15,113 nucleotides of DNA from Ignavibacteriales bacterium (GTDB lineage Bacteria > Bacteroidota > Ignavibacteria > UBA10030 > UBA6906). The translations under genes and the position numbers were made by a program. The stretch covers positions 1-15,113 of the forward strand of contig JBBIRR010000066.1 of NCBI GenBank assembly GCA_037441705.1, given 5' to 3'. Below are positions 5,408 through 15,113 of this stretch, piece after piece (position 1 is the stretch's first letter; every line of letters begins with the position of its first letter). The notes beneath the pieces are model-generated. The model had not been told where the DNA came from and searched no databases. It saw only the letters and a list, made by a program, of their open reading frames with translations.

Positions 5408-6346
5408 CTACGGCCTCTCCCGCTCCACCTGAAGCTTCTGTATCCACCGGGAGACCGCTTCGTCGGTTGCATTCCGTGAAAGCGCAAGAAGCTCATCAAC
5501 GTAACCTACGATCAGTCGCTGAGCGCCTAAGAGCAAACGCTTGTTCTCCGCGTTCCTTGCTTGCTCGCCGTAGCCGGCGTCGGCAAGTTTCTGTTGAAGG
5601 CGAGCGTAGCGTGACTTCAGTTCTGCGCGTCGAGCAGCCCAGGTCTTCACAAGTTCCTTCAGGTACTCATTCTCCACCGCGATGTGCTTTTCCATCGTCT
5701 TTGTCCTCAGTGCATGCACCGCTTTCGCGTCCTTGAATTTTCCCGCTTCGCTGTAGTCAACCCAGGGCAGCTTATCCACCTCGGCGGCAAGCCACGCAGC
5801 AACCTCCCGATGCTTGCGATCTCGCTCTCGGGGGAGGGCGGAGTTCTTTTCTGCAATCGCTGCCGCGCGTTGCATCTCGTCCGCCACAACGGCGTTGACG
5901 CGATGGTACTCATCCAGAGCATCCTGCACCGCGCCTGACTCTGGAGTGAGCGCTTTGGGACCAAGGTTCGTCTGCTGCATCATCTTCATGGCATACTGCA
6001 TCTTCTCTGCGTCGCTCATTGTGGCCATGGTCTTTTGCATCTCTTCTGGATTGACGTTGCCCATCGCCGTTGCTGCTGGCATCGTGAGCATCGCCTCGGC
6101 CTCCTGAAATCGGTTGCCAAGAGCTGCAAGCTTGTCCGTGATCGTTGCATAGAATGCCTTCGAGTCGCAGCGATACTGGTCGCCGTTGACCGAGCATTCG
6201 GCGCGAGCATACGCCTCGACCACAGTGGCGGGCGGAGCAGGCACGTACTCATAGTACTCCAGCACGTTCACCGGCACGCTTGTCTGCCCGGATATGGTTA
6301 GCGGAAGAATGAGAACGGCAAACATCGCTTTGCAGAACGAAATCAT
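5408..6346 (-). CDS. Secreted hypothetical protein, 312 aa, predicted mostly alpha-helical
   Basis: GGAGG RBS lies 4 nt before ATG 6346. The N-terminus is signal-peptide-like (MISFCKAMFAVLILPLTISG-QTSV), followed by a Met-rich central segment and coiled-coil-like helices. Confidence 0.8.
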   Translation of the reverse strand: MISFCKAMFAVLILPLTISGQTSVPVNVLEYYEYVPAPPATVVEAYARAECSVNGDQYRCDSKAFYATITDKLAALGNRFQEAEAMLTMPAATAMGNVNPEEMQKTMATMSDAEKMQYAMKMMQQTNLGPKALTPESGAVQDALDEYHRVNAVVADEMQRAAAIAEKNSALPRERDRKHREVAAWLAAEVDKLPWVDYSEAGKFKDAKAVHALRTKTMEKHIAVENEYLKELVKTWAARRAELKSRYARLQQKLADAGYGEQARNAENKRLLLGAQRLIVGYVDELLALSRNATDEAVSRWIQKLQVERERP

Positions 6347-6589
6347 GGCACCTCCAGCGGGATTGTGGAAAGATACAGTGGTTGCTGGTCTTGTACGCAC
6401 GATGGTACGAAGAAAACCCCACATGATGATGTGGGGGAGAGATCTAGATCGAAAGGTGGACTCCACTGAGCTTCAATCAAGAACTCGTTGCCTCTTCTTA
6501 GCCTCATCGTTATCTTTCGAGGGCATGGGGGAAACTTGCCGACACGGCAGGCGAGAATCTATCAATCAGCTCATCTATCCGGACCCGTC

Positions 6590-9500
6590 ATGGATCAACC
6601 ACTCAACACCATTCTCGACAACCGCGATTCCAACACCGTTCTCGAAGCGCTCAAGAAACTCCTTCCCGAATCCCGAACGCTCGACGTTGCCACCGGCACC
6701 TTCGAAATCGGTTCGCTGCTCGCACTGGATTCTTACTGGAATGGCCTCGAGCAACTCCGGATTCTCATGGGCGACGAAACCACGAAGCGAACTCGCACGG
6801 AGTTGGTGGAGAACCTCCGGCTGGCAAGTGAGGAAAGCATCGAGCGAGAAAAGGAACGGGACGACTCGCTGCGCGGGTTGGAAGCGGTTCGAAACGCGCT
6901 GCAGAGTGGTATGATGCAAGCAAAAGTCTACACCCGCGCGAAGTTCCACTCCAAAGCTATGCTCATGAAGATGAAGCCGCCCCACCTCTCGAACTACGGC
7001 ATTATCGGATCGAGCAACTTTACCGAGCCCGGACTCTGCCGCAACGTCGAGCTGAATCTGCTCACCACCGAGCAACACCAATTGAAGGCGCTGTGGGATT
7101 GGTATGAGCAGCACTGGCAGGAAGCGGAAGAAGTGAAGGCTGAACTGCTCAGAGTGATTGAACCTCACCTCAAGTTGTATTCACCGTTCGACGTCTATGC
7201 GAAAGCGCTGTACGAGTACTTCGCCGGCAAAGAACTTCCGGCTACAACGTGGGAGGAGAGCGAATCCAAAATCTATCTGATGCTCGATGAACTGCAGCGG
7301 CGTGGGTATCGGCAGGCGCTGAAGATTGCCGCCGAGTGGGGCGGCGCGCTCATCTGCGACGGGGTTGGCTTCGGAAAAACATACATCGGATTGATGCTGA
7401 TCGAGCGCTTCTTGCACGAGCGGAAGCGTATTGCTTTGGTTGTCCCCAAGTCTGCACGCGAGAGCGTGTGGGAAAATCGTCTGAAACGATTCTTCAACTA
7501 CAAGCGCGGCAGAGGATTCTCAACGCAGATCATCGTCCTCAACCATACCGATCTTCCACGAGAGAGCGAAGATATTCAGGAAGACCTCCGCAGCATCAAA
7601 GAAGAAGCCGACGTCATTATCGTGGACGAGGCGCATCACTTCCGCACACTGAGCGCACAGCGCAGCGAGAAACTGTTTGATCTGATCGATCACAACAACA
7701 AAAGAAAGCAAGTATTCCTCATCACCGCCACACCGGTGAACAACTCGCTCTTCGACCTTCTCCACCTCATGGAGTATTTTACCGGTAAGGATCGCGCGTA
7801 TTTCCAGAAGTTGGGCATCAACGATACGCGCACGCACTTTGTCCGCTTGGAGAAAGCGGTTGAAGTGAAGATCGAGGCGGCGTCCTCGCGCAACGGCGAG
7901 GAACAACTCTTTCCTGAGGAAATTCTTGCCGAAGCGGAGCGAACACTGCGCGACGACAAACTCTTCCAGCATATCGTCATCCAGCGGAGTCGCAGTTACG
8001 CGCGGGATTTTTTCTGTCGCGAAGGCTCGGACGGCTTCTATTTTCCCGAACGTCTGCCTCCCACCGTTGCTGAGTACCAATTGGCAAAAGTGTACGGCGA
8101 ACTGTTCGACAGCATCAAGTCCGCCTTTAGTAAAGAAAAGCCATTTGTTGACCTTGCGCTCTACAACCCGGAGAGTTACCGAAAAAACGAAAGCATGATT
8201 CGGCCCGACATCCGCAACCGTGAAGTGCAGGTGATTACACTCATCCGGGCCACGCTGCTGAAGCGGATGGAATCATCCTACAAAGCGTTCGAAGCATCGT
8301 TGGAAGATCTCCTCCGCTCCATGGCGCGATTCTATCGACACTATGCTGCTGAAGGAGAGTGGGCGAAGTGGAAGCAAGACCATGAAGCATTGTGGCAGCG
8401 ACTTGAACAACACTGGCGTGAGCGTTTCGCCGCCGACGACGAGGTGGATGAAGTCGAAGAAGATGACATCCTGCCGCCGCCCAAGGAAGAACTCAAACCC
8501 GAAGAATTTCATCTCGATACCATTCTCGCCAGTGTTCGCCACGACATGGACGAACTCGCTGCGTTCCTTTCGTTCATCGATGAACGCCTGAGGCAAGAGA
8601 CCGATGACAAACTGCGCGCGCTTGTGGAGTTACTCAATTCAACCCACGTCAAAGGCAAGAAAGTCGTCATATTCACACAGTATCGGGACACGGCGCGCTA
8701 CCTCTACCGGCAACTGGTCGAGCGAGGATTCCAACGCGTGGAGGAGTTGGACAGCACGTCAAAGAAAGATCGGGAAACCGTCATCAAACGTTTCTCACCC
8801 TACTACAACTGCAGCGATGATGAACTCTCAGACTATCTCGCCAATCCCATCGACATTCTCATCTCCACCGATGTGCTTTCCGAAGGCTTGAACCTGCAAG
8901 ACGCCAATCTTCTGATCAATTATGATTTGCATTGGAATCCCGTCCGCCTGATGCAGCGTATCGGTCGCGTGGATCGCCGCCTCGACCCTGCCATCGAGAA
9001 GAAACTTGGGCGAGAGAAAAACGTCATCCGCTTCTGGAATTTCCTACCGCCCGACAAACTGGACGAACTGCTCGGGCTGTACAAGCGCGTCTCCGGCAAA
9101 GTGCTGCGTATCTCCAAGACGCTCGGCATCGAAGGGAAGAAATTGCTCACGCCCGAAGACGACTACGATGCGCTGCGCGACTTTAATGCCGAGTTCGAAG
9201 GCACACGCACTGCCGACGAGCGGCTGCATTTAGTGCTGACGGAGATTCTGCAAAAGTACCCCGCGCTTGCGGAGGAATTGCCTCGCCTGCCGAAGCGTCT
9301 GTTCTCCGGCAAGCGAGCGCCGGAGAAGCAGCCTTCGGGTGTGTTCGCGGCGTATCGCTTCCCTTCGCGCAAAGTCAGAGACGAGCAGGGCATCGAGCGT
9401 GACGTGCCCGGCGAATGCCGATGGTACTTCCATCGCTTTGGCACAGATGACGTGCTGGAAGACCTCGACGCCATTCACGCTATCATCGAGTCAACCCCCG

Positions 9501-9649
9501 AAACGCCGCGTGTGGTTGCAAAGACAAAAGACGAACTCCGCACGAGTCTCAAACTGATCGAACAGAAAAAAGTGAACCCCGAACTCCGCAATCGCCAGGC
9601 TCTGGCGGGTGAAAAAGCCACGCTCGTCTGCTGGATGGAGGTGGTATGA
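6590..9649 (+). CDS. N-terminal PLD-family nuclease fused to SNF2-type SF2 helicase/ATPase, 1019 aa
   Basis: PLD motif FHSK...GIIGSSNFT (His codon at 6947). Helicase motifs DGVGFGKT (I), DEAHH (II), ITATP (III), IFTQYRDT (IV), [12 protein letters not shown] (V) and [19 protein letters not shown] (VI). ATG 6590 is preferred over TTG 6488. Confidence 0.92.
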
Positions 9650-10352
9650 CGCGTTATCCCCATCTCCCGCCCGAACAGTGGCGCACTCAGGAAGTGATCG
9701 ATCTCTACAACAGTGATGTGAAGGAGTGGAACGAACGAATCCACAACGTAAGGAGACTGCTCATGAAGCAAACATTGATTGTTCCCGAAATCATTGAAAA
9801 GAAGATTTTCCTCATCCGAGGACAGAAGGTGATGCTGGACTTTCATCTTGCTGAACTCTACGAGGTGGAAACCAAAGCGCTGAAGCGTGCGGTGAAGAGA
9901 AATCGCGATCGGTTTCCTGATGACTTCTGTTTTGAACTCACCGAGGCCGAAGTGGAGAACTTGAGGTACCATTTTGGCACCTCAAGTTGGGGTGGGAGAA
10001 GATATCCACCGTTGGCCTTCACCGAACAAGGCGTTGCGATGCTTTCCAGCGTCCTGCGCAGCAAGCGGGCTGTGCAGGTCAACATCGAAATCATGCGTGC
10101 GTTTGTGCGCCTGCGTGAGATGCTTGCGACACACAAAGATCTTGCGCGGAAATTGGAAGAGTTGGAAAAGAAGTACGACAAGCAGTTTGCCCTTGTGTTT
10201 GAGGCAATCCGGCAACTGATGACACCGCCGGAGCCACCGCCCAAACGACGCATCGGGTTCGGCGTGGAGGAGCCGAAAGGCGTGTACAAGACTCGCAGGA
10301 ACAAATCATGAGCAAACCACTCTCAGAAGACACCGTCTGCTGGATGGAGGTG
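9625..10352 (+). repeat. 19-bp exact direct repeat CGTCTGCTGGATGGAGGTG (helicase 3' end containing a GGAGG RBS) flanking the ORF6N gene
   Basis: Copies at 9625-9643 and 10334-10352, extending to 21/22 identity with GTA versus ATA. Both copies encode VCWMEV. Confidence 0.9.
9646..10311 (+). CDS. ORF6N-domain DNA-binding protein; alternative start at 9763
   Basis: [81 protein letters not shown] and C-terminal KRRIGF. ATG 9646 overlaps the helicase stop. A second ATG at 9763 has an AAGGAG RBS at 9750-9755. Confidence 0.9.
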
Positions 10353-10361
10353 ATACCATGA
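10308..10361 (+). CDS. 17-aa chimeric minigene [17 protein letters not shown] (junction scar or translational relay)
   Basis: The ATG overlaps the ORF6N stop (ATGA 10308-10311) and the stop overlaps the YhcG start (ATGA 10358-10361). The first half resembles the methyltransferase N-terminus and the second half matches the helicase C-terminus. Confidence 0.55.
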
Positions 10362-11437
10362 AACCTGCACGATCAACAGATCATCGTGTATCAACAGGTC
10401 TGCTGAAGGACATTCGCTCACTTATTGAATCTGCACGGTCGCAGGTTGTTCGGACGGTCAATTCATCGCTCGTTATGTTGCACTGGCGGATCGGGACACG
10501 GATTCGGAAGGACATCCTCGGTGAAGAACGAGCGAAATACGGGCAACAGATTGTGACATCACTGTCGCGACAATTGGTGAAAGAATACGGGGCTGGGTGG
10601 GGAGAGAAACATTTATGGCATTGTCTACGCAGTGCGGAGACTTTTTCAGAAAAACAGATTCTCTACGCAGTGCGTAGACAATTGAATTGGACACATATTC
10701 GTACTATTGCTTATCTCGATGATAAACTACAGCGTGAATTTTACTTAGAGCTCTGCATACAGGAACGTTGGAGTACACGCCAACTCCAGGAACGCATCGC
10801 CTCCATGCTCTACGAACGCACCGCCATCTCGAAGAAACCCGCGAAGCTCATCAAGCAGGAATTGAAATCTCTTCGTAAGAAAGACACACTCTCGCCCGAC
10901 CTCGTGTTCCGCGACCCTTACTTCTTCGATTTTCTCGGGCTCAAAGACACGTACAGCGAGAGTGACCTCGAGGCTGCAATTCTCAGAGAGATGGAATCGT
11001 TCATTCTTGAGCTTGGCGTAGGTTTCAGCTTTGTCGCCCGGCAGAAGCGCATCTCGGTGGATCACGAAGATCATTACATCGACCTGCTTTTTTTTCACCG
11101 CGGGCTTCGCAGGCTCGTGGCGATTGATCTGAAATTGGGTTCCTTCAAGGCGTCGGACAAAGGACAAATGGAACTCTACCTTCGCTGGCTCGAGAAGCAC
11201 GAGATGCAGCCCGGCGAAGAAACACCAATTGGATTGATCCTCTGTGCGGGCAAATCCACCGAGCAGGTGGAACTTCTGCAACTGCACAAGAGCGGCATCC
11301 GTGTGGCGGAGTATATGACCGAACTTCCACCGCGAAAGCAGTTGGAAAAGAAACTGCATCAGGCAATCATCACTGCACGAGAGATGCTCGCACGACGACG
11401 ATTACCGGAATTATCAACAACTGGAAAAATCTCATGA
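10358..11437 (+). CDS. YhcG/DUF1016 family PD-(D/E)XK nuclease-domain protein, 359 aa
   Basis: VNSSLVMLHWRIG, RAKYG, LNWTH, WSTRQL, FRDPYFFDFLGL, ILELGVGFSFVARQKRI, YIDLLFFHRGLRRLVAIDLK, GQMELYL and PIGLILC. A GGAGG RBS lies upstream. Confidence 0.93.
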   Translation: MKPARSTDHRVSTGLLKDIRSLIESARSQVVRTVNSSLVMLHWRIGTRIRKDILGEERAKYGQQIVTSLSRQLVKEYGAGWGEKHLWHCLRSAETFSEKQILYAVRRQLNWTHIRTIAYLDDKLQREFYLELCIQERWSTRQLQERIASMLYERTAISKKPAKLIKQELKSLRKKDTLSPDLVFRDPYFFDFLGLKDTYSESDLEAAILREMESFILELGVGFSFVARQKRISVDHEDHYIDLLFFHRGLRRLVAIDLKLGSFKASDKGQMELYLRWLEKHEMQPGEETPIGLILCAGKSTEQVELLQLHKSGIRVAEYMTELPPRKQLEKKLHQAIITAREMLARRRLPELSTTGKIS

Positions 11438-14400
11438 AGCCCATCACCGAACACGCCGTGCGTTACATTCGCGACCGGCAAACGCTTCTACAGTTTCTCG
11501 AACGTGACCTCGGCTGGCGACTGCCGCCTGACCCGCCGCCCGACGAGGTAACATTCGACTGGACTGCAGATGAACTGCATCTGAGCGATTCCGCCAAACA
11601 GAAACTCGCCGGCGGCACGGTAAAGCAACTGCGACCGATGCACGACAACCAACCGTGGGGAATCTTCCTGGTCGAGTTTGCCGACGGACGGGTGTACCAA
11701 ACCGCGCTGCGGCAAATCCTGCGCGGACTCGTCCCCAAGCGCCGCCGCGACTCGAACCTCCCCGCATGGAAGCACGAGAACCTGTTGTTCATCTGCACAA
11801 CAAAAGATCAGCAGTTCACCTTTGCCCATTTCCGCGGCGAGAAGCCCGAACGCGCCAAAATCGTCCGCTTCTCCTGGTCGCCCGATGAACCGATCCGCAC
11901 GCTGTGCGAGTTCAACCTGCCCGCGCTGCGCTTTCCTGATGATCCATCACAGTGGACGCAGCAATGGCAGAGCGCCTTTGATGTGGAGAAGGTCACTAAC
12001 ACGTTCTTCGAACAATACCGCGTTATCTTTGATCGCCTCCAAAAGATTCTCCACAAGCAAACAAAAGACAAACAGTGGGCGCACGACTACGCACTGCAGT
12101 TCCTTAACCGCTTGATGTTCCTCTACTTCATCCAGAAGAAGCGTTGGCTCGGTAACAATCCTCGTTTCGTCAAAACACTCTGGGATGCTTACAAAGCGAA
12201 GTCACCGCACAAAGACACGTTCTTCAGCGAGTGGCTTTCGGTTCTCTTCTTCGAAGCCTTCAACGAACGCTACCAGAATCGTGCGGAATACGAGAAACGT
12301 TTCCCGCTGGAGATTCGCTCGGCGTTCGCTCAAGCGCCGTTCCTCAACGGCGGACTTTTTGCCGAAAACAAACTCGATACTGCCTTCACCGCCGCGATTC
12401 CCGATTCGTTCTTCACCGAACTGTTCGACCGATTCGAGAACGACTCGCCCGGCTTCTTCGAGCGCTACAACTTCACCATCTCCGAAGATACGCCGCTCGA
12501 TCAAGAAGTTGCCGTTGACCCGGAGATGATCGGAAAGGTGTATGAAAGTCTGGTCAACATCACCTTCGAAGGCATCACCGAAGAAGACCTGCGCGGCAAG
12601 GCGGGCATCTTCTACACCCCGCGCATCGAGATAGACCTGATGTGCCGACTCTCGCTCACCGATTGGCTCGTGAATCATCTCGGCGAAGAACACAAAGAGA
12701 TCATCCGCCGCGCCGTCTTCGCCTACTCGCCCGAAGAAAAGAAAGAAGCGGATGACACTTTGCTCAAAGCCAATTTGTGGGAAAGACTCAACAACGCGCT
12801 GCGTGCGGTGACCGTGCTCGACCCTGCGTGCGGCTCCGGCTCGTTCCTCATCGGCATGCTGTTGGTGTTGGACGACCTGCAAGCCCGTGCGAACAACATC
12901 CTCGGCGTTGATGAAACCCACTACGAACGCCGCAAACGCATCATCGGGCAGAGTCTCTACGGCGTGGATGTGATGGAGTGGGCGGTGCACGTTGCCGAAC
13001 TTCGTCTCTGGCTGCAACTCGTCATCGAAACCGAATTAGCTCCTGCCGAACTCAAATTCCGTCCGCTTCTGCCCAATCTCTCCTTCAAAGTCCGGAACGG
13101 CGACAGTCTCGTGCAGGAAGTGGGCGGCATCAGTTTCGGATTGCATCGTGAGCATCTCGACATTTCTCACGCGCTCAAAGGGAAGCTCACCGCGCTCAAA
13201 GGAGAAAAGCTGAAGTTCTTCCAGGGTGAATACAAACAAACCGAGCGCAAGCGTGAAGAGATCGAACAGCAGGAGCGGCAGGTCTTCACGGCGATACTCA
13301 ACGAGAAAAAAATCCTGCTCGACAAAGAGATCGCCCGGCTCACGCGCAAAATCGAACAGCCCGAAGCCGAGCAGATGGAGTTGTTAGAAACCAAAAAGCC
13401 CGGCAAGCAACTTCAACTGAAAGTGGAAGAATGGGAAACACAAAAAGAAGAACTCGAAGCCGAGCGTGACCGCATCACTCATGCGCTCGACGCGCTCAGA
13501 ACCGAACAGCGCGTCCCCTTCGTGTGGGACATTGCCTTTGTCGAAATCTTCGAGAGCGAGAAAGAGGGCTTCGACATCGTCCTCGGCAACCCGCCGTATG
13601 TGCGGCAGGAGATGATTGCCGACCCGCGGCTCGACCCCGCCGACTTCGGCGGCGAAAATAGCGACCGCTGGAAAAAGAAGAAAGCCGAATACAAAGCAAA
13701 ACTCCAGCGCTCGGTCTATGAAGCCTACCCGAAATTCTTCGGCTACAACTGGCGCAAAGGCACCGCCGCCCGCAAGATTGACGGCAAGTGCGACCTCTAC
13801 ATTTTCTTTTATCTGCACGGACTCAGTCTACTCAACCCTAAAGGCAGTTTCTGCTTCATCACCAGCAACTCGTGGCTCGATGTCGGCTACGGCGCCGACC
13901 TGCAGGAGTTTTTGCTCAAGCACTGCGCCATCCACTACATCATTGACAACGAAGCCAAACGGAGTTTTGCGCAGGCGGATGTGAACACGGTGATCTGTTT
14001 GTTTTCTGCACCTGTAGGTCGGAATGCCATTCCGACCGACAATGCTCGCTTCGTAATGTTCCGCGTGCCGTTTGAATACGCCCTCTCGCCTGTGGTGTTC
14101 GAAGAGATTGACTCCGCAACAGACCGCTTACGCCGACCTGAGTTTCGTGTAGTGGTGAAGACGCAAGAAGAGTTGCACAGCGAGGGGCTTGAGGTTGAGG
14201 AAGAGGAAGAAGCGCCGAGCGTCTCTGTTCACGAAGGTGAATATGCAGGCGACAAGTGGGGCGGCAAATACCTGCGCGCACCGGATATCTTCTTTACGAT
14301 TTTGGAGAAAGGCAAAGACAAACTCGTGCGGCTGGGGGGTATTGCGGAAGTGCGGCGCGGCTTTACAACCGGCGCCAACGAGTTTTTCTATCTCGACGAC

Positions 14401-15113
14401 GAAAAGATTGCCGAGTGGGGAATTGAGAAAGAGTTTTTGAAGCCGGTGATAAAGAGCCCGAGAGAATGCAAAAACATCTTGATTGACCCGAAGCAGCTGA
14501 AACACAAGATTTTCATGTGCCACAAGGAGAAGAAAGAACTCAAAGGCACGAAGGCGTTGAAGTATATTGAGTGGGGAGAAGAACAGGGGTTTCATAAACG
14601 ACCAAGTTGTGCTGGAAGAGAACCGTGGTGGGATTTGGGAGAGCGTCCTGGGTCGACAGTGAACTGCAATTACCTTGTCAATGAAGTAATGAGGTTTTAC
14701 TATTCGGTTAATCGGTTCTATGTCAGCGACAACTTTCAGGAGATACATTCCACAGAGGATCAGGCGAGCTTAGTGGTGTCTCTTAATTCAAGTGTTTTTG
14801 GATTGATAGTTAACATGACGGGAAGGACAAATTTCGGCGGGGGGTTGATGAAGATTCAAACTTATGAAGTTGCGAATCTCAAGCTACTAGACCCGACATG
14901 CATAGCGGATGATAATCGAACCACAAAAGTATTGCAAAGTATTTCAAATAGAGAGATGACGAGTATTTATAGAGAGTTCGGATTGAACTTAACCAAGCCC
15001 ATCCGTTCTCAGCAGCCCAAACCGCTGCCGGACCGGAAAGCGTTAGATGATGTCGTCTTCGATGCGCTCGGTCTCACCGAAGCCGAGCGGAAGGAAGTCT
15101 ATTGGGCGGTGTG
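11434..15113 (+). CDS. Large gamma-class N6-adenine DNA methyltransferase with C-terminal TRD (Eco57I/Type IIG-like), >1226 aa, runs off window end; absent from ORF track
   Basis: Frame is open from ATG 11434 (MKPITEHAVRYIRDR...). Motifs LNRLMFLYFIQKK, FLNGGLF, YNFTISED..VAVDPEMIGKVYE, GIFYTP (X), LDPACGSGSF (I, 12820), YGVD, GDSL, FDIVLGNPPY (IV, 13588), DLYIFF and ITSNSWLDVGYG. TRD region has RRGFTTGANEFF and ends ...LDDVVFDALGLTEAER. Confidence 0.93.
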   Translation, partial: MKPITEHAVRYIRDRQTLLQFLERDLGWRLPPDPPPDEVTFDWTADELHLSDSAKQKLAGGTVKQLRPMHDNQPWGIFLVEFADGRVYQTALRQILRGLVPKRRRDSNLPAWKHENLLFICTTKDQQFTFAHFRGEKPERAKIVRFSWSPDEPIRTLCEFNLPALRFPDDPSQWTQQWQSAFDVEKVTNTFFEQYRVIFDRLQKILHKQTKDKQWAHDYALQFLNRLMFLYFIQKKRWLGNNPRFVKTLWDAYKAKSPHKDTFFSEWLSVLFFEAFNERYQNRAEYEKRFPLEIRSAFAQAPFLNGGLFAENKLDTAFTAAIPDSFFTELFDRFENDSPGFFERYNFTISEDTPLDQEVAVDPEMIGKVYESLVNITFEGITEEDLRGKAGIFYTPRIEIDLMCRLSLTDWLVNHLGEEHKEIIRRAVFAYSPEEKKEADDTLLKANLWERLNNALRAVTVLDPACGSGSFLIGMLLVLDDLQARANNILGVDETHYERRKRIIGQSLYGVDVMEWAVHVAELRLWLQLVIETELAPAELKFRPLLPNLSFKVRNGDSLVQEVGGISFGLHREHLDISHALKGKLTALKGEKLKFFQGEYKQTERKREEIEQQERQVFTAILNEKKILLDKEIARLTRKIEQPEAEQMELLETKKPGKQLQLKVEEWETQKEELEAERDRITHALDALRTEQRVPFVWDIAFVEIFESEKEGFDIVLGNPPYVRQEMIADPRLDPADFGGENSDRWKKKKAEYKAKLQRSVYEAYPKFFGYNWRKGTAARKIDGKCDLYIFFYLHGLSLLNPKGSFCFITSNSWLDVGYGADLQEFLLKHCAIHYIIDNEAKRSFAQADVNTVICLFSAPVGRNAIPTDNARFVMFRVPFEYALSPVVFEEIDSATDRLRRPEFRVVVKTQEELHSEGLEVEEEEEAPSVSVHEGEYAGDKWGGKYLRAPDIFFTILEKGKDKLVRLGGIAEVRRGFTTGANEFFYLDDEKIAEWGIEKEFLKPVIKSPRECKNILIDPKQLKHKIFMCHKEKKELKGTKALKYIEWGEEQGFHKRPSCAGREPWWDLGERPGSTVNCNYLVNEVMRFYYSVNRFYVSDNFQEIHSTEDQASLVVSLNSSVFGLIVNMTGRTNFGGGLMKIQTYEVANLKLLDPTCIADDNRTTKVLQSISNREMTSIYREFGLNLTKPIRSQQPKPLPDRKALDDVVFDALGLTEAERKEVYWAV
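14013..14041. repeat. GTAG-type REP-like palindrome inside the methyltransferase coding sequence
   Basis: TGTAGGTCGGAATG-C-CATTCCGACCGACA has 14-bp arms with one mismatch and is read in frame as PVGRNAIPTD. Confidence 0.65.

Follow-up and report, generated by a model that had tools for sequence, protein, structure and literature searches.

Defence genes are found embedded within the multi-gene systems Hma, BREX, DISARM and type I restriction-modification, where 96.7% of them are co-oriented, and the PDC candidates were derived from such embedded genes (Payne et al., bioRxiv 10.1101/2024.01.29.577857, section 10 for the candidates). In section 11 of this preprint the significance and the origin of embedding are said to remain to be explored. 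Tripartite BREX-related 'BR' systems, as described in a further source, associate an HKD-nuclease-SNF2 helicase, an N6-methyltransferase and a DUF499 ATPase with embedded back-up nucleases (NAR 2026, PMC12839542). The operon considered here, from an Ignavibacteriales bacterium, is like the cases surveyed by Payne et al. in that its accessory genes are nested and co-oriented, the cargo matching PDC-S05 and PDC-S02. By contrast, its host is a two-gene pair, an HKD-SNF2 helicase with an Eco57I-type methyltransferase, which is none of the four systems surveyed there. Like the BR systems of PMC12839542, it has an N-terminal HKD nuclease fused to an SNF2 helicase and accompanied by an N6-adenine methyltransferase; unlike the tripartite form with its DUF499 ATPase, the related locus L006 shows two genes only. 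The embedding of defence genes is already known, and it is the junction scars that are a new mechanistic clue: the abstract and sections 5, 10 and 11 of Payne et al. make no mention of joint scars such as that of our locus. Word searches of the open-access literature found neither junction scars nor a stacking of cassettes through joined alleles described, and gave nothing specific on ORF6N or DUF1016 in connection with restriction-modification or on illegitimate recombination in connection with defence.

The host operon and its embedded genes

The window, i.e. the whole stretch of 15,113 nt that was analysed (assembly GCA_037441705.1, contig JBBIRR010000066.1), reads as one operon on the + strand from position 6590 to its end. 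The operon opens with a gene of 1019 aa (6590..9649, +), in which an N-terminal PLD/HKD nuclease domain precedes an SNF2-type helicase core (Pfam PLDc_2, SNF2-rel_dom, ResIII and Helicase_C); it matches the PADLOC 'HKD+Snf2' model with an E-value of 8.6e-61, and its counterpart in the protein database is P0001, also of 1019 aa. There follows a leader of 39 codons (9646..9762, +), the truncated N-terminal part of a protein of about 70-80 aa, fused in frame with the ORF6N-domain gene (9763..10311, +; Pfam ORF6N, E 4e-35; PADLOC PDC-S05, E 6.5e-59), which keeps an internal start at 9763 with AAGGAG 7 nt upstream. The second cargo gene codes for a YhcG/DUF1016 protein of the PD-(D/E)xK nuclease family (10358..11437, +; Pfam DUF1016_N and YhcG_C; PADLOC PDC-S02, E 7.2e-129), and its start is backed by P0473, a near-identical copy of 359 aa with the same start. 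Last comes an Eco57I/MmeI-type N6-adenine methyltransferase (11434..15111, +; Pfam Eco57I, MmeI_Mtase and M_Eco57I_C; PADLOC type IIG models), whose ATG overlaps the YhcG stop and which extends past the window end, its homologues having 1200-1300 aa. ORF6N and YhcG are thus nested inside the helicase-methyltransferase pair and share its strand, with an ATGA stop/start overlap at all four gene boundaries of the operon. No promoter-like site was found inside it, and terminator-like sites are not in excess (6, with 6.5 expected).

L006, a relative whose flanks are fully available, has only housekeeping genes on either side of its helicase-methyltransferase pair, and because of this the host can be regarded as a two-gene, restriction-modification-like unit. 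The full gene set of DISARM class 1 or of Hma (DrmA/B/C with DrmD and DrmMI, or the HmaC ATPase with HmaA/B) is not what L006 contains, since it has its two genes alone. The NCBIfam matches to DrmD (138.7 bits, cut-off 610) and BREX PglX (46 bits, cut-off 500) are both below cut-off, and the PADLOC matches to the operon are partial, that to the 'HKD+Snf2' model excepted. Judged by its sequence, the operon is of restriction-modification-like make-up and is best assigned to no named system.

Some features of the individual genes and of their surroundings may be recorded here. Family searches found no recombinase among the nine large ORFs of the window; genes other than those of the operon code for an aminotransferase, a PEPCK, a permease and a protein without assignment. 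A 22-nt sequence occurs twice, 91% identical and 71 nt apart, in the aminotransferase/PEPCK spacer (2145-2237), and a 352-aa ORF that has no Pfam, NCBIfam or PADLOC match runs divergently from the helicase (5408-6466, - strand). The cargo is only slightly AT-richer, a difference in base composition that is not decisive. The ORF6N protein of the window is a singleton cluster in an exact look-up. For YhcG, the window's own record lists P0472, whose 210 aa are just the C-terminal part of an intact frame of 359 aa, and near-identical full copies (P0473 and P0242) occur elsewhere on contigs of just 1240 and 2231 nt; the part coding for its N-terminal domain holds a 21-nt inverted repeat, 90% complementary, together with a 13-nt direct repeat (10620-10682). 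In the 3' part of the methyltransferase gene (14400-15000) the G+C content falls from about 0.55 to 0.43-0.45, which may mark a swapped target-recognition region.

The 17-codon frame between ORF6N and YhcG

Between the two cargo genes lies an open frame of 17 codons (10308-10361), here called the mini-gene. Its ATG at 10308 overlaps the ORF6N stop in an ATGA, and its TGA (10359-10361) overlaps the YhcG ATG at 10358. A first-pass annotation of this DNA had taken it for a chimeric frame made of a methyltransferase start and an exact 19-bp copy of the helicase 3' end, and the frame and the copy are both confirmed. The last eight codons of the mini-gene repeat the helicase 3' end: its 3' part (10334..10361, +) is a second copy of the helicase tail together with its stop. 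The first repeat copy (9625..9643, +) corresponds to the helicase tail codons V C W M E V and contains a GGAGG; the second (10334-10352) is identical over 19 nt, and the match extends to 21 of 22 nt when 9625-9646 is compared with 10334-10355. Allowing up to three mismatches, the repeat pattern occurs exactly twice in the window, while none of 200 shuffles gave any match. The annotated spacing of 709 nt and the in-frame character of the repeat are likewise correct, both copies being in the same codon phase (GTC TGC TGG ATG GAG GTG), and so is the GGAGG claimed for the helicase tail, which in the second copy stands 8 nt before the YhcG ATG. No RNA structure was found at the joint (fold of 10280-10400, z -0.71), and an exact direct-repeat scan gave no repeat before the methyltransferase.

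How much the repeat can tell depends on how the tail behaves across the family. CWME[VI] followed by one residue (107 cases) or two (4 cases) ends 111 of the 120 best helicase homologues, down to 47% identity, the remaining nine differing by one residue within the motif; in more distant loci the tail reads [CA]W[ML]E[LVI]. The W-M-E codons give a Shine-Dalgarno-like GGAG or GGAA, and in 44 of the 49 related loci where nothing intervenes between helicase and methyltransferase the start of the next gene falls, by a rough script, 4-25 nt past them. The window's 18-mer tail is present unchanged at the helicase end of four of 80 distant loci (L004, L006, L010 and L040), and because of this the 19-nt identity shows origin from a helicase end, not a recent duplication. 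The exact identity is therefore no evidence of a recent event, with the 18-mer in four of 80 distant loci and the motif in 111 of 120 homologues. One locus, L026 (87-9177), has the reversed order, methyltransferase then helicase, and there the helicase ends without the W-M-E motif. This single case suggests that the tail is conserved, in part at least, on behalf of the gene that follows, and it speaks for a link of the tail with gene order, not with docking.

The 5' part of the mini-gene consists of ten codons (10308..10337, +) with the pattern of a methyltransferase N-terminus. At the nucleotide level, 16 of 24 nt are identical to the window's own methyltransferase start over the codons from K to V; this count, put forward in the first-pass annotation, is correct, but it is not above chance and adds nothing alone. 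A Smith-Waterman probe made of the methyltransferase 5' end found its best match inside ORF6N rather than in the mini-gene, where the match is not above shuffles. At the protein level the homologues begin with M-x(0-6)-[IV]-[PSTR]-E-[HEDQ]-[ASTK]-[VI], and 37 homologues supplied 18 distinct N-terminal cores for a position matrix, the window's own methyltransferase and the mini-gene being left out; the matrix was devised after the pattern had been seen. The mini-gene core reaches 10.6 bits on this matrix, a score attained at 123 of 2,398,391 six-frame positions (5e-5) and expected at about 4e-4 for one given ORF start. The likeness to a methyltransferase N-terminus is thus significant, at the protein level only and on ten residues. 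Methyltransferases with a start similar to that of the mini-gene, which the annotation predicted, do exist: P0208 begins MLKPISEEAV, with a spacing equal to the mini-gene's, L001 begins MNKSVTEHAV and L002 MKPIPEQAV. In both L001 and L002, ORF6N is directly followed by a methyltransferase start of the mini-gene's pattern, in L002 also with the ATGA overlap. The ten codons of the mini-gene are no nearer to the methyltransferase start of L001 than to that of the window itself. Taken with the tail copy, these data support reading the mini-gene as a chimera of a methyltransferase-type start and a helicase end.

The helicase-methyltransferase junction in related loci

A helicase-alignment scan of the genome collection gave 592 confirmed helicase-family stretches, of which 80 were taken as the locus set; seven were left out, having one gene missing within reach or another gene order, and 73 comparable loci remained. 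In 49 of these the junction is empty, no more than 89 nt separating the helicase stop from the methyltransferase match. In the other 24 the gap is longer than 150 nt; 23 of them carry ORFs, i.e. cargo, and one (L051) a scar only. The junction is a cargo site, with variable co-oriented genes and with empty alleles. By Pfam, the cargo is of more than ten kinds: ORF6N in L001 (three tandem copies), L002 and L021; YhcG in L003 (full) and L064 (N-domain only); GIY-YIG in L004 (two copies); MazF in L007 (a fragment) and L008; a PIN pair in L014, L016, L023, L042, L052, L071 and L074; HicBA, again in L023; DUF433 with DUF5615 in L056; DUF4062-HATPase_c_4 in L024; 23S-rRNA-IVP with a zinc ribbon in L032 and L075; an insert of 5.5 kb in L040; and genes without a family match in L030, L047 and L072. 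If YhcG were a free-standing homing nuclease, it would cut the empty junction; it has a PD-(D/E)xK nuclease domain and in every case begins on a helicase stop. Many of the cargoes are not DNA nucleases. The three types of allele that the annotation had foretold are all present among the 73 loci: empty (49), helicase-ORF6N-methyltransferase (L001, L002 and L021) and helicase-YhcG-methyltransferase (L003). The start of a YhcG-type gene lies on the helicase stop in L003, L004 and L064, just as that of the window's YhcG lies on the stop of the mini-gene; the ORF in question in L004, of 66 aa and without a family match, is a possible YhcG remnant. Ten of the 120 best YhcG homologues lie on contigs equal in length to contigs of helicase or methyltransferase homologues, a hint that YhcG may be frequently associated with such operons. 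No second locus with the same mini-gene was found among the loci examined, a set distinct from the contigs of the closest relatives, P0002-P0011, whose helicases are 80-85% identical.

The cargo does not track the phylogeny of the operon, as may be seen from two contrasting comparisons. Between the window and L021, ORF6N is 77% identical while the last 300 aa of the helicase are 47% and the first 100 aa of the methyltransferase 35% identical; with L002 the corresponding figures are 58%, 73% and 43%. L001 is the closest relative among the loci (helicase 82% identical). It has helicase, leader and ORF6N in common order with the window, and the similarity stops after the ORF6N stop. Along the helicase its identity with the window is a mosaic, 49-95% per 150 nt, as would be expected from recombination between alleles; it is 92% for ORF6N copy 2 (91% at the amino acid level) and 88% for the methyltransferase 5' end. 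The leader belongs to a family of small proteins of about 70-80 aa, with 110 representatives at E<=1e-3, for which there was no Pfam model and no usable protein atlas match. In L021 (13090-13326) this protein is encoded by a separate gene upstream of ORF6N, and the ORF6N cassette is for this reason a two-gene module; in the window and in L001 the first gene of the module is truncated and fused. In P0364 a PLD-domain helicase fragment is fused to the helicase tail, read in another frame, and to the leader small protein.

Exact direct repeats of at least 13 nt were scanned for in 25 junction regions, those of the 24 loci and that of the window. Boundary repeats occur in five: the four multi-cassette loci, namely the window (19 nt), L023 (32 nt, a helicase-tail copy between the HicBA cassette and a second cassette), L001 (172 nt, a plain tandem ORF6N duplication) and L004 (a GIY-YIG duplication), and in addition L024, with a 27-nt repeat whose copies are 47 nt apart; two 13-nt matches in L075 are read as chance. 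In L001 (13054-14646) the three tandem ORF6N copies, the first of them truncated, come with the 172-nt exact repeat at a period of 601 nt and have no helicase-tail copies. In L004 (13054-14880) two identical GIY-YIG genes and arrays of repeat units of about 113 nt stand behind the 66-aa ORF, as though a repeat-rich element had invaded and pushed one cargo aside.

A probe made of the helicase tail is significant only in the window, L023 and L051; the two loci other than the window repeat the tail at or near a cassette boundary. In L023 (z 15.9) the second copy comprises the last 23 coding nt of the helicase, the stop and 6 nt beyond, then weaker similarity, and together with its cassette it aligns with L052, in which that cassette comes after the true helicase. 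The two L023 copies agree fully over their first 32 nt and diverge at several of the 18 positions beyond, which fits a joining of two alleles better than a simple duplication of a target; no methyltransferase-start remnant was detectable before this second tail copy (z 0.2). In L051, which has no cargo, a second copy of 45 nt (tail, stop/start and 25 further nt) is identical at 34 of 45 positions, and none of 500 shuffles did as well. A candidate methyltransferase-start remnant in L072, where the six residues after the helicase stop are those of the L042 methyltransferase start, was rejected, 18 of 200 shuffles being as good. The locus is like an integron array in stacking promoterless cassettes, all oriented alike, after a fixed entry point and in having a repeat at each boundary. 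It is unlike one in lacking an integrase in the window, in having as its boundary element the directly repeated end of a coding gene instead of an attC hairpin or imperfect inverted repeat, and in that only three of 74 loci show such a repeat.

Origin of the joint

Homology-facilitated illegitimate recombination, or unequal crossing-over, makes a joint between non-homologous points, probably with a few bases of microhomology, beside a stretch of good homology, and it duplicates the intervening sequence. To our knowledge, illegitimate recombination has not been described as a route for stacking defence cassettes inside an operon. The joint in the window is like its products in lying between non-homologous points beside homologous regions; its topology is that of the downstream flank of one unit fused to the upstream flank of another, with direct repeats around the first, and the same is seen in L023. 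We therefore favour, with a probability of roughly 0.6, the reading of the mini-gene as the scar of an illegitimate or unequal recombination that joined two cargo-bearing alleles. From these relationships we infer both the order of events and the type of recombination. Two versions of the helicase-methyltransferase operon, one with ORF6N and one with YhcG, would have been joined by an illegitimate crossover, i.e. one using short or no homology, that fused the ORF6N version's methyltransferase, at codon 10, with the YhcG version's helicase, at its eighth-last codon. Such a crossover might have come about by unequal exchange between two chromosomes, or by uptake anchored through helicase homology, with the other side closed illegitimately. 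The product would read helicase / ORF6N / joint / YhcG / methyltransferase. The joint would have inherited from one parent the methyltransferase start, which overlaps the ORF6N stop, and from the other the helicase stop, which overlaps the YhcG start with GGAGG 8 nt upstream; as it happens to be in frame, ribosomes could pass from gene to gene.

Several other explanations have to be balanced against this one. The junction might be an active, integrase-free slot, where units or circles of helicase tail, cargo and methyltransferase start integrate at the tail of about 20 nt and can be excised through the flanking repeats, the mini-gene being the closed joint of a 709-nt ORF6N circle. The structure does equal that of a Campbell-type insertion of such a circle at the tail. 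The helicase copy begins some 18-25 nt before the stop in the window, L023 and L051 alike, the tail is the most conserved nucleotide stretch common to distant alleles, and the same cargo is found at exactly the same junction in operons 47% identical. Put more generally, the near-invariant tail of about 20 nt would be conserved for its double role, as the end of the helicase and as carrier of the ribosome-binding site of the next gene, and the junction would be an enzyme-free attachment site; operons whose divergence otherwise prevents recombination could in this way swap, stack and lose cassettes, and chimeric mini-genes would be closed joints. Deletion between the repeats would give a helicase ending in the last eight codons of the mini-gene and leading into YhcG, which resembles natural alleles (the four of 111 with two residues after the motif). 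However, no deletion allele or circle was found among the loci examined, 19 nt is short for a RecA-type exchange, 20 of the 25 junction regions have no boundary repeat, and in L001 and L004 the stacking is a plain tandem duplication that involves no copy of the tail; that tail copies are so regular in extent could just as well reflect selection for a ribosome-binding site. We regard the active slot as unlikely, and the attachment site in its general form as unlikely to the same degree. It is rather less probable that only the tail copy is real, the first ten codons being a spacer of other origin whose likeness to a methyltransferase start is fortuitous. The similarity in nucleotides is indeed at chance level, the signal is carried by only six to ten residues, and the tail copy of L023 is not accompanied by a recognisable methyltransferase start; yet a protein-level score such as this is rare, and the ten codons occupy the very position, behind ORF6N, at which the methyltransferase begins in L001 and L002.

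The same joint would also result if two complete systems, one per cargo, had once stood in tandem and a single deletion had removed the body of the first methyltransferase and that of the second helicase. Defence genes do often cluster, but none of the 80 loci, with flanks of about 10 kb, has a second match to the C-terminal 300 aa of the helicase or to the N-terminal 300 aa of the methyltransferase, and L026 has a reversed gene order, not a tandem; we give this history a slightly lower chance again than that of a fortuitous 5' half. Finally, the contig could be a chimera made during assembly from an ORF6N-bearing strain and a co-occurring strain that bears YhcG. The window looks like a metagenome-type contig, and the near-identical YhcG genes on contigs of 1240 and 2231 nt hint that assemblies break near YhcG. 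For a false join, the sequences must have in common a word no shorter than the k-mer of the assembler, and assemblers seldom use k below 21, while the supposed parents share at the joint only the 19-nt tail, with both flanks unique. Similar tail duplications occur in independent assemblies, including a chromosome record (L051), and we consider an artefact the least probable account, indeed a very improbable one.

If the mini-gene is a recombination scar, it probably acts as a passive translational relay, making a 17-residue peptide. Translational coupling along the operon can persist because both halves brought a stop/start overlap and the joint is in frame; this frame is no argument for selection on coupling, since its chance is one in three. 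What this locus adds is that the joint itself has been preserved, the start of a downstream gene being fused to the end of an upstream one, and that related scars exist in two other, unrelated genomes. A route for stacking is thereby offered, recombination between cargo-bearing alleles through one illegitimate joint, and a possible reason why its products remain functional is that the copied helicase tail supplies whatever follows with a ribosome-binding site and a stop/start overlap. The helicase-methyltransferase junction, filled in a third of the loci examined, is accordingly a place to seek new defence candidates. As to microhomology at the crossover, the family consensus, valine then arginine, would allow about four shared bases. 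A stretch within ORF6N (10016-10057) resembles the methyltransferase 5' end (11441-11479) with a z of 5.7, and likewise in L001; this likeness is probably a coincidence of the T-E-x-x-V peptide, but it is a potential microhomology.
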